From the NCBI GenBank assembly GCA_964016885.1, contig OZ024747.1, positions 40,052,001 to 40,116,000 on the forward strand: 64,000 nucleotides of DNA, read 5' to 3'. The DNA comes from Eledone cirrhosa. Lineage: Eukaryota. A program made the translations under genes and the position numbers. A model generated the notes under the pieces. It was not told the origin of the DNA, searched no databases, and was given only the letters and a program-made list of their open reading frames with translations. Of the stretch, positions 46,519 through 57,210 are shown one piece after another; position 1 is the first letter of the stretch; every line of letters starts with the position of its first letter.

Positions 46519-46588
46519 ATGTTTTATTATATATATTTCGAAGGTACTGCGTTGTTTTTTCAGTACGTTCTCGTCAGATAAAATACAT
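46519..46588 (-). ncRNA. Intact minimal type I hammerhead ribozyme (family B)
   Basis: tattttat-CTGACGA-gaa c gtactg [loop] cagtac c ttc-GAAA-tatata-TA-ataaaac. Confidence 0.85.
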
Positions 46589-46751
46589 GAATTGATGTAT
46601 GACATACCTCAACGGTCTTGATAGTTCAATTCCAGACTGCCAATACTGGAATTGAACTATCAAGACCGTTGAGGTATGTCATACATCAATTCATGTATTT
46701 TATCTGACGAGGACGTACTGAAAAAACAACACAGTACCTTCGAAATATATA

Positions 46752-46920
46752 TAATTGTTTCTACTTTAGGCACAAGGCCAACAATTACCCAGTGCATTAC
46801 TGGTACTTTATTTTATCGACCCCGTAAGGATGAAAGGCAAAGTCAACCTCGGCGAGATTTGAACTCAGATCGTAAAGGGACGTAACTATGCTGGAAAGCA
46901 TGGCGTCCGACCCTCTATCG
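46752..46920 (-). mobile_element. Family 1 SINE inserted at the hammerhead cleavage site, 16-bp TSD
   Basis: TSD tcgaaatatatataat at 46740-46755 and 46918-46933. Confidence 0.9.
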
Positions 46921-47829
46921 AAATATATATAATAAAACATATATTTTGATTATGTGACTGTCTTCATTTATTAATATTCTGAATAATATTAATAACTCCA
47001 GAAAAGTTTCTTGTAGAGTGCTTTTAATCTATTGTAAAACTATATTCATTGAGTAATCAATGAACCGCATTAATCTTTGGTTGTATATATATATATATGT
47101 ATATATAGAGAGAAAGAGAGAGAGCGAGCACAACAAATTAGTTATTTATTAATATTCTGAATAATATATATATATATATATATATATATATACAAATAGC
47201 TTATCGCTCTACATGGCTGAATACAATAAATGTATAATAATAATGAATAATAATAATAATATTCGATTCGTTTGCAATTATGCAAACAGCCTCTTTAAAG
47301 CTATGTACGTATATATATATATATATATATATATATATATATATATATATATATATATATATATATATATATATATACATATATATATATATATATGTGT
47401 GTATGTATGTTTGTATATATATATATGTGTGTGTGTGTGTGAATGTGTGTGTGTGTGTGTGTGTGTGTGTGTGTGTGTGTGTGTGTGTGTGTGTGTGTGT
47501 GTGTGTGTGTGTGTGTGTGTGTGTGTGTGTGTGTGTGAATGTATATATAGGCATTTATGACAATATAATGAGAAATCCGTTCAGGGTATTTAGAATTGTT
47601 GATTGAATTAGCGGCAATTTAGTCGTAATAGTGACTGCGAATGAAATGTCTTTCTAATTAAATGGTCACTTGAAATGTTCCCATACATAAAAGCGAGTAG
47701 AAATGTGACAATTTTAACTCATTCTCTTTAATTTACATGCAATTCTGTTTAATTTCCATTGCCTTCGATTGACGTATATTCTTAAAAATACAGAAAAGAA
47801 ATGTATGCCAATCACTAGTATAATAGAGT

Positions 47830-48112
47830 AGCATGGCCTAGTGGTAAAGGTGTTGGACGTATGAACATAATGTTGTGGGTTCCATTCCCGGGCTGGGTTG
47901 TGTGTTGTATTCTTGAACAAAAAAATCCATTTCACATTGCTCCAGTATACTCAGCCAAGAATGTGTATCAGCAATAGCTGGGGATTTAAGCCTACGATGA
48001 ATGGCCTCTTATCCTGGGGAGGTTTTGTACTCTCAGTCGCATCACGCCACGATATCTAGATAAACACCGCCCTGACAAACCCCTTGTCTTGAGACAGACT
48101 TTAGAGACTTTA
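47830..48112 (+). mobile_element. Old tRNA-derived CORE-like SINE
   Basis: A box tggcctagtgg, B box gggttccattccc; tail gagacagactttagagact is similar to 59030-59048. Confidence 0.6.
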
Positions 48113-55500: not shown

Positions 55501-55603
55501 GGATATGAACTCAGAGAACAGAAGATGCCGAAATCAATACCACAAACCATTCTATCCGACGTTATATACTATATACTATATATATATATATATATATATA
55601 TAT

Positions 55604-56140
55604 AAAAGACATTTTCGCTCTACATGGCTGAATACAATAAATGTAATTTGAGTTTTTCGAATATTAATAATAACATTCGATTCGTTTGCAATTATGCAAA
55701 CAAGCAGCAATTTGATAGCCATGTCAGTAGAATGAACACTTCATTCTTGCCCTTGTGTTGGCATGCGAAAAGAACTGCAGACACTAATGTTTCTGGGTAT
55801 CACCCTTCATCAGTACAGCTCACTGTTCACCTGCCAAACTGTCAGAGCTAGTGAAAATATGTGCTATTTTCAAAAATACACAGTGACTGATCGGCCTGAT
55901 TTTCATATTAACAGATTGGCTGATCAGTCAGATCTGCATATTAGCAGATCCACTGATCAGCCAGATTTGCATATCAGCAGACTGGCCAGTCAGTTTCCTG
56001 TATACGAGCGATAAATGACCGGCTTTACCAAATTCAAATAAAAAAAAAAATGTTAAAAATGATTTTAAAAAATTATTAACATTCAAAAAACTCAGATTAC
56101 ATTTATTGTATTCAGCCATGTAGAGCGAAATTTTCTTTTT
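55604..56140. mobile_element. MITE-like element with about 60-bp terminal inverted repeats and an internal about 33-bp triple repeat
   Basis: tttcgctctacatggctgaatacaataaatgtaat at 55613 is mirrored at about 56096-56130; left end also found at 47205-47290; no TSD resolved. Confidence 0.6.
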
Positions 56141-56766
56141 TACAAGAGCAAAAATGAAGGGTTCATTCTACTGCCTTTGTTAATTTTCTTTAGTGACAAG
56201 GTATGCAACTGTGCAGAATGGAGCTCTGCCGTTGCCTAATACTTCATGGTGAGAAAAGGGAACCAAAGAAGATTATTAGAGATCATCAGATTTTTAAACC
56301 CAGTATGGAGAAATAGGATCCTTTATATATACATATAATCATTTCACCAGGTGTACGGAATGATTTGTAAGTACATATGGCTATGTTGAGAGTTTCATCT
56401 ATAAAATCAGACTCGATGCGTTTGGTTTCTACATATATTTTAATTTATATATATATATATTAAATTAGTATTTTTCAACCTAGCTAACTTGGTCATTTGC
56501 AATTGGAACACATGTATACTTGTATCAGTGTTCATCCCTCTCATATATTCACTTGTATTACACGGCTCAGAAAGGTTTCCTTCCTTGAGCTATTTAATAG
56601 TAAAAGACTATTTTGAGTTTCTAACTCAATCTATGATATATATATATATATATATATATATATATATATATATATATATATATATATATATATTTATATA
56701 TATATATCATAGATATATCATATATATATATATATATATATATATATATATATATATATATATATA

Positions 56767-57210
56767 TATATTAATAAATGGAAACTATATTTATAAAACC
56801 ATAATTATTTTATTATATATATTTCAAGGGCAACCAAGGCAAATTTTGGTGCGCTTTCATCAGATAAAATACAAATTTGTTTTATAAATATTTACATACC
56901 CGCATAAAGACAACCTTAACGGTTGAGGTTCGCTGGATAGACTATCCAGCGAACCTCAACCGTTAAGGTTGTCTTTATGCGGGTATGTCAATATTTATAA
57001 AACAAATTTGTATTTTATCTGATGAAAGCGCACCAAAATTTGCCTTGGTTGCCCTTGAAATATATATAATAAAATAATTGTCGTTTTATAAATATAGTTT
57101 CCATTTATTAATATATTGAATATTTACTCCACCCATTGTTGAGTGCTTTATATCAGTTATAAAAATGTTTAAGCTTGTTGAATCCCAACAAATTAAATAT
57201 AACCTCTGCA
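56767..57210. mobile_element. Family A fold-back element: near-perfect palindrome (about 174-bp arms, 1-nt centre at 56941) plus 3' tail, flanked by (TA)n
   Basis: cgctggatag-a-ctatccagcg; right arm and tail match window positions 23-225. Confidence 0.92.
57008..57078 (+). ncRNA. Intact minimal type I hammerhead ribozyme (family A); mirror copy on the minus strand at 56804-56874
   Basis: tattttat-CTGATGA(57019)-aag c gcaccaa..ttggt t gc c ctt-GAAA(57057)-tatata-TA-ataaaata. Confidence 0.85.

Follow-up and report, generated by a model that had tools for sequence, protein, structure and literature searches.

Hammerhead-type folds conserved in Hydra-clade Penelope-like elements of Eledone cirrhosa, and insertion junctions downstream of their predicted cut site

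The window analyzed here, a stretch of 64,000 nucleotides of Eledone cirrhosa DNA, harbors two head-to-head insertions in (TA)n, of families that we call A and B, each with a pair of hammerhead-like motifs. An earlier note on this DNA proposed that covariation between the two families reflects a functional fold and that cleaved RNA, ending in (UA)n, could pair with a nicked (TA)n target. The locus thus raises the question of whether the fold is kept by selection and whether its cut is what starts insertion. What hammerheads do in Penelope-like elements is still unsettled, according to the available text of PMC8557442. We hold it highly probable that the motifs are type I hammerheads residing in the pLTRs of sister Hydra-clade families and kept under selection, that cutting likely depends on dimers or on protein, and that insertion is likely primed downstream of the cut, on RNA in which the site is intact.

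Hammerhead motifs in the window

All four motifs lie where the earlier note had placed them, with cores starting at +57019 and -56863 (family A) and at +46704 and -46577 (family B). The features are listed below; the near and far sites are the two junctions with (TA)n described in the last section.

46372 to 47089, no strand: head-to-head stub of family B inserted in (TA)n; an ACTGCC motif marks its centre, at about 46630-46650
46520 to 46585, minus strand: family B predicted type I hammerhead, intact; predicted cut after 46528
46696 to 46755, plus strand: family B predicted hammerhead; a later insertion parts the ribozyme from the 3' strand of helix I
46756 to 46917, no strand: insert within the family B plus-strand copy; its 16-bp target duplication (46740-46755 and 46918-46933) includes helix III
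47090 to 47170, plus strand: inverted copy of the B left flank, then a relic near-site end at 47143-47167 (100% match of 24 nt)
56766 to 57209, no strand: head-to-head stub of family A inserted in (TA)n, with 98% identity between its arms over 351 nt
56806 to 56871, minus strand: family A predicted hammerhead, mirror copy; predicted cut after 56814
56936 to 56948, no strand: family A palindrome centre; a (C)ACTATCC motif starts both arms; 5' ends cluster at this motif, a candidate start of transcription
57011 to 57076, plus strand: family A predicted type I hammerhead; predicted cut after 57068
57126 to 57147, plus strand: first of two repeated ACUC/GCUC...GAG(U/C) stem motifs, directly 3' of the near site

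In the plus-strand copy of family A, helix I pairs 57011-57018 with 57069-57076, and the core (57019-57025) is followed by helix II (57026-57056), GAAA (57057-57060) and helix III (57060-57067); the cut after 57068 had been correctly placed. The order of motifs, namely, helix I, CUGAYGA, a 3-bp helix, a C.C mismatch, 6 to 7 bp, GAAA, UAUAUAUA and the helix I partner, is that of a type I hammerhead with an AUA triplet, and includes the CUGANGA and GAAA core elements and an NUH cleavage triplet. Families A and B share flanks and core around helices II that differ in sequence and agree in geometry, as the earlier note had claimed. Its description of helix II as 3 bp, a C-C mismatch and 6 to 7 bp holds as well, but its reading of the basal B helix as GAA/UUC does not apply to the plus-strand copy, which has GGA/UUC with a G.U pair. 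RNAfold recovered helix II in both families, the distal part carrying a bulged U in family A, and in an alignment allowing for this bulge, five of the nine comparable helix II pairs differ on both sides between the window copies of A and B and are still paired.

Exact matches to the pattern common to both families numbered 7,667 in the 3.0-Gb genome, against none for the reversed control, showing that the motif is not due to chance; a B-specific pattern had 2,181. An Rfam search gave no match at the gathering level and no hammerhead family among the weak matches listed (150 of 156), which were mostly microRNA models on microsatellites and palindromes. A search of the PDB found no solved relative (one match, E=0.7). 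Judged from their sequence, the motifs are likely to be hammerhead-type folds capable of self-cutting.

The stubs in the window are passive copies. In the plus-strand copy of family B, a 162-bp insert, which we take to be SINE-like, lies just after the cut site and splits the motif, with loss of helix I. The B left flank is present a second time in inverted orientation (46354-46541 versus 47107-46918, 98% identity).

Two further A-type ribozyme copies were seen in the window, at +34 and +399 (regions 1-220 and 319-475); the former forms an inverted pair, as its far arm, with a copy located immediately ahead of the window start (locus L035). An A2-type copy on the minus strand at 39365-39646 has its tail duplicated in inverted form around a long (TA)n run, and similar TA-centred inverted duplications occur at 31326-31439, 32932-33277 and 50965-51115, which suggests template switching at (TA)n and not twin priming. 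At 50022-50145, a short fold-back element in (TA)n carries CTGATGA and GAAAC in its arms, these being hammerhead-like motifs only; related pieces lie at 42486-42537 and 43476-43521.

Sister families of the Hydra clade

The earlier note had left the parent element unnamed. At locus L031, a broken RT plus GIY-YIG frame lies between two A-type motifs at a distance of 3.7 kb, giving the arrangement pLTR-ORF-pLTR, and a protein search from the N terminus of this frame returned 150 scored matches among 9,489 candidates. The ribozyme lies about 190 to 215 nt before the ATG of the RT plus GIY-YIG frame, and about 240 nt before it in those of these loci where the 5' end is preserved. Ten of the 15 loci fetched for long frames contain open frames of 738 to 755 aa; YRDD and YVGST motifs were read in frames of 743 to 755 aa. 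A homologous frame follows the B-type pLTRs (L141 and L144; L111 and L112 at 60 to 83% identity), which, together with the 53 to 60% identity of the A and B flanks, indicates that A and B are sister families.

The single RT frame with a C-terminal GIY-YIG domain, recognized by its motifs, is that of an EN+ Penelope-like element. RRIRWRAF and KSDKTNNLY in L096, L101 and L102 correspond to the RWR and DKT motifs, with R in place of K in an RWK-type motif and DKT substituting for DKG, and the linker motif CNCRNKSNC (CxCX5C) as well as CDLCIEE (CxxC) and CCRH (CxH), which surround the endonuclease E and N, were read by eye in L102, where CCHH is absent. Pfam gave a subthreshold GIY-YIG match (E=1.5e-4) on one of five fragments and, on two whole frames, no RT match and nothing above the cutoff. 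Further Penelope-like traits are the pLTRs with a hammerhead, the tandem and inverted 5'-truncated copies and the one-sided tail, and insertion is in (TA)n, the target of the Hydra clade. By these motifs, rather than by an RT tree, A and B are assigned as sister families in the Hydra clade. Nematis, Neptune and Naiad were rejected on the basis of DKT, CxCX5C and domain order.

The Hydra clade of C-terminal EN+ Penelope-like elements, including the octopus member Hydra-1_Obim, was described by Craig et al. 2021 (PMC8557442). According to the available parts of that work, its elements have in common with the families studied here the single RT plus C-terminal GIY-YIG frame, the (TA)n target, the RW(R/K), DKT, CxCX5C, CxxC and CxH motifs, the hammerhead in the pLTR, inverted 5'-truncated copies and a one-sided tail. 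All 26 hammerhead rows published there have C15.2:G16.2 and a GUH cut; by sequence, the families here differ from them in that helix III consists of A and U only, the predicted cut follows AUA and helix II contains a C.C mismatch, and the ribozyme of Hydra-1_Obim is likewise different. Units are also longer, about 3.4 to 3.8 kb with a tail of about 90 nt, compared to under 3 kb and 30 to 40 nt (PMC8557442).

Non-LTR retrozymes, in the text available (bioRxiv 10.64898/2026.07.22.740005), resemble the stubs in being non-coding and pLTR-related and in having a type I hammerhead, but they form head-to-tail arrays, whereas the window contains head-to-head stubs of coding elements. The stubs were therefore not classed as non-LTR retrozymes. 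A degraded Penelope-like linker/endonuclease piece at 48213-48790 (33% over 73 aa to L101, E=3e-4) belongs to a different, older family.

Covariation of the helices and the weakness of helix III

Of 234 candidate motifs, 12 failed the filter and 60 fell into groups of fewer than three. Covariation was compared across 19 subfamily groups, defined by their flanks except for E, which was defined by pattern. L287 was left out of the group and tree analyses as a duplicate of L286. Subfamilies C and D were found among copies picked by frame or tail, and in subfamily E helices I and II are wholly different. Among 22 real copies, 94.9% of 374 helix cells were paired, compared to 35 to 53% in slid controls on the same copies, and 11 of the 17 pairs showed double changes. 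RNAalifold recovered helix II unaided.

Across the 19 groups, pairing persisted in 186 of 190 helix cells although some 52 bases had changed at the 20 helix positions, a count that is approximate given a rough flank tree in which E is not monophyletic and the relatedness of the subfamilies. When columns were re-paired at random 20,000 times, the mean was 70 paired cells and the maximum 155. Derived majority states kept the pair in 16 of 20 cases, private changes in only 16 of 44 (Fisher p=0.0025). These data bear out the claim that covariation supports a functional fold, in helices I and II. Changes in the core were confined to the free position 7 (five changes, with U, C, A and G all found), plus one A/G in the helix III loop, and the core was otherwise invariant in the majority state of all 19 groups. 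The patterns used to collect families B and E include the core itself, so that an unbiased view of this invariance comes only from A, C and D, whose copies were picked by tail or ORF. The internal C.C mismatch of helix II was fixed in all 19 groups. With the helices covarying and the core fixed except at position 7, the sequences argue that the fold is kept under selection in the master lineages. We also observed that helix I pair 2 runs from A-U through G.U to G-C across A, C/D and a D branch (L187, L203), which, as read from the sequences, is a complete compensatory path.

Minimal hammerheads with a short helix III were described in metazoan Penelope-like elements by Cervera and de la Pena 2014 (PMC4209133; reviewed in PMC6765202). 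As far as the text at hand goes, they have in common with those studied here the type I topology, a long helix II, a palindromic helix III with predicted dimers, thousands of dispersed copies, opposite-strand pairs 100 to 700 bp apart, and families full of compensatory changes (PMC4209133). The motifs here differ in having no extra base after A9, in their fixed C.C mismatch and in a position 10.1:11.1 that is A-U or G.U in most groups and not G-C.

Helix III reads AUAU(A/G)UAU in 19 of 19 groups, and its two pairs never vary among the 22 copies. In a monomer it has only these 2 bp, with a probability of 0.0 in single-arm RNA and a closure cost of about 3 kcal/mol, so that no stable monomer is predicted; helix I reaches a probability of only 0.03 to 0.23 in the single-arm transcript. 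Self-pairing of the 8-mer yields -3.2 kcal/mol (-2.2 for the G variant), and the full 8 bp were formed in all 10 cross-family pairs tested by prediction. Helix III being too weak for a monomer, these models indicate that the ribozyme likely acts as a dimer or with the help of protein. In line with this, metazoan Penelope hammerheads are described as working as dimers, weakly and perhaps with cofactors (PMC4209133; PMC6765202, available text), and the ribozyme of the PAc Poseidon element as needing protein to cut (PMC11167929, available text). A dimer in cis within the window palindromes was rejected because the two ribozymes lie on opposite strands; read-through RNA of such a palindrome folds as one long hairpin.

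An inverted pair in L102 (326-383 and 530-587) carries another hammerhead-like motif, identical in helix I but with ATGCGCAT, in one arm ATGCACAT, as helix III, so that the palindrome is kept and the (TA)n identity is not. In L250, L269, L275 and L237, repeats ending in a GC-rich hairpin plus CTAG, presumably Helitron-like, sit in the TATATA of helix III; this loop acts as a target for other TA-seeking elements.

Insertion junctions and the place of the cut

Where copies join the target was read from 98 of the first 100 copies picked by tail (two were not fetched), the tail word having 29,633 matches in the genome. Copies joined (TA)n at two sites, a near one about 50 nt and a far one about 140 nt downstream of the cut: 62 ended at the near site, 31 at the far site, three at the far site with internal damage, and two were read-through. 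Family B uses the same two sites. In all of 20 inverted pairs, one end was near and the other far or read-through. A further 26 pairs, among which L287 was counted, comprised 21 near/far and two near/read-through but no near/near; the other three were uninformative (two far/read-through, one cut by the locus edge). The window A insertion follows this rule of one site per end, its left arm ending at the near site (about +48 from its own cut) and its right arm at the far site (+141). The B insertion is far/far in its present state, but it keeps the relic near end at 47143-47167 and was probably far/near originally, the second far end having been gained later by template switching. Both sites precede the repeated small stem by a few A/U-rich bases, the second stem lying just past the far site in full-length copies, and limited pairing with (TA)n may occur at these downstream sites rather than at helix III.

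In the open-licence literature searched, neither these families nor a one-site-per-end rule turned up. Earlier publications already cover Hydra hammerheads, families that covary, dimers and initiation at two sites. The last was reported for PAc, in which initiation in vitro uses two sites on both strands independently of the ribozyme (Frangieh et al. 2024, PMC11167929). According to the available text of that study, PAc resembles the families here in its two internal initiation sites downstream of the ribozyme, which define the tail, in the nicking and extension of both strands, in the use of uncut RNA and in an AT-rich target. The PAc sites, however, lie inside the ORF, lack homology to the target and show no difference between strands, whereas those described here fall within the 5' UTR, precede A/U-rich bases and are used one per end in mirrored insertions.

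The 5' ends of the 98 copies were distributed as follows: 43 ran into the 3' UTR, 25 fell within -15 to +8 of a CACT motif, 18 between this motif and the ribozyme, eight inside the ribozyme, three at the cut (within 3 nt) and one beyond. Among these tail-picked copies, 5' ends did not accumulate at the cut, as they would if the cut 3' fragment were used. The CACT motif lies 105 to 140 nt upstream of the cut and forms the centre of both window palindromes; it resembles, as we assume, the initiator consensus, and we infer that it marks the transcription start. Tails without GAA at the normal distance numbered 633, and the 30 inspected were accounted for by loop slippage, internal deletions, insertions of other repeats and inversion junctions.

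These observations suggest a scheme in which the element protein would nick both (TA)n strands and one cDNA would start at each downstream site, just 5' of the repeated stem and helped by the few A/U bases, and run back through the ribozyme. If both cDNAs started in the 5' pLTR of the transcript, they would reach the RNA 5' end after 190 to 280 nt, and the two short cDNAs, joined head to head, would give the window palindromes. The ribozyme would likely trim tandem or read-through transcripts to unit length, as a step apart from insertion. Cutting within the 3' pLTR would separate the priming sites from the element body unless the RNA were religated. A more speculative extension, which we regard as unlikely, is that a single Penelope ribonucleoprotein primes both nicked strands on RNA with an intact ribozyme, using by rule one of the two stem-marked sites for each strand, and that the ribozyme serves as a dimer-dependent off-switch. 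As the same palindromic helix III occurs in all subfamilies, any one of the tens of thousands of copies, dead stubs included, could then trigger cutting by pairing in trans and act as a cross-family feedback on copy number.

Genome-wide, 47,465 cores read through the cut site (none in the reversed control). Copies spanning the intact site imply a template RNA that was either uncut or cut and religated, and since a religated junction is identical to an uncut site, read-through counts are compatible with both. The main rival for the long copies is a religated circle, as proposed in PMC4209133 (available text): two ribozymes would excise a unit-length RNA, ligation would restore the cut site, and cDNA synthesis starting at the two downstream sites would continue round the circle, yielding copies longer than a unit. 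This route would explain the strong selection on the core, and 12 of 26 ORF-bearing copies do carry 3'-end sequence upstream of the CACT start motif, which requires either a circle or tandem read-through transcripts. However, transcripts of tandem copies such as L031 and L203 would also give such copies, and the 25 of 98 copies that stop 105 to 140 nt upstream of the cut need a linear 5' end, so the stubs at least do not stem from circles. Insertion of PAc in vitro was, in the available text, unchanged by ribozyme mutants (PMC11167929). On balance, we consider the circle unlikely.

Less probable still is that the fold is kept as a protein-binding or regulatory structure, serving as promoter or in packaging or translation, with no meaningful cutting now. 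The A/U-only helices I and III are weak and the copies show no excess of 5' ends at the cut; in the texts available, metazoan Penelope hammerheads cut poorly in vitro (PMC4209133) and reads neither started nor stopped at the cut site of PAc (PMC11167929). Nevertheless, exactly the catalytic positions are fixed while position 7 alone varies, the pattern expected of catalysis, and the PAc ribozyme cuts once protein is added (PMC11167929, available text), making a purely structural role improbable.

That the cut (UA)n end anneals to nicked (TA)n and primes insertion, as the earlier note had it, agrees with the uniform AUAU(A/G)UAU of helix III, but (TA)n follows the cut in only 203 cores (reversed control 40), against 47,465 that read through, and junctions lie at the two downstream sites. 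Among 30 of the 203 inspected, 13 were loop expansions with the tail present, one was unrelated and 16 had no tail within 1.5 kb, corresponding, if scaled, to about 0.2% of copies. These 16 could be rare real events, but they are also expected from deletions between the loop and the nearby flank, where (TA)n lies 50 nt away, or from later insertions in the loop. Moreover, an A/U-only helix III occurs in none of the 26 published Hydra hammerhead rows, nearly all from elements targeting (TA)n (PMC8557442, available text). It is unlikely that the cut end starts insertion, and the model is refuted as the main route and as a whole very improbable.

Priming downstream on intact-site RNA remains the preferred reading. 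With cut-end priming removed as the main route, unit trimming, circle formation and negative control are left as candidate roles for the ribozyme. This large, diversified set of families provides comparative evidence that a catalytic core is selected although insertions start elsewhere than at its cut, and the natural helix swaps of A, B, C, D and E around a shared helix III are ready reagents for dimer and heterodimer assays.

Two other features of the window were noted. At 51454-51690, an open stretch of 79 codons lies between AG and GT splice-like sites; Pfam gave no match to it, and it is probably a host exon, so that the stubs may be intronic. A tandem array with an 18-bp period occupies 22524-24500 (end approximate).
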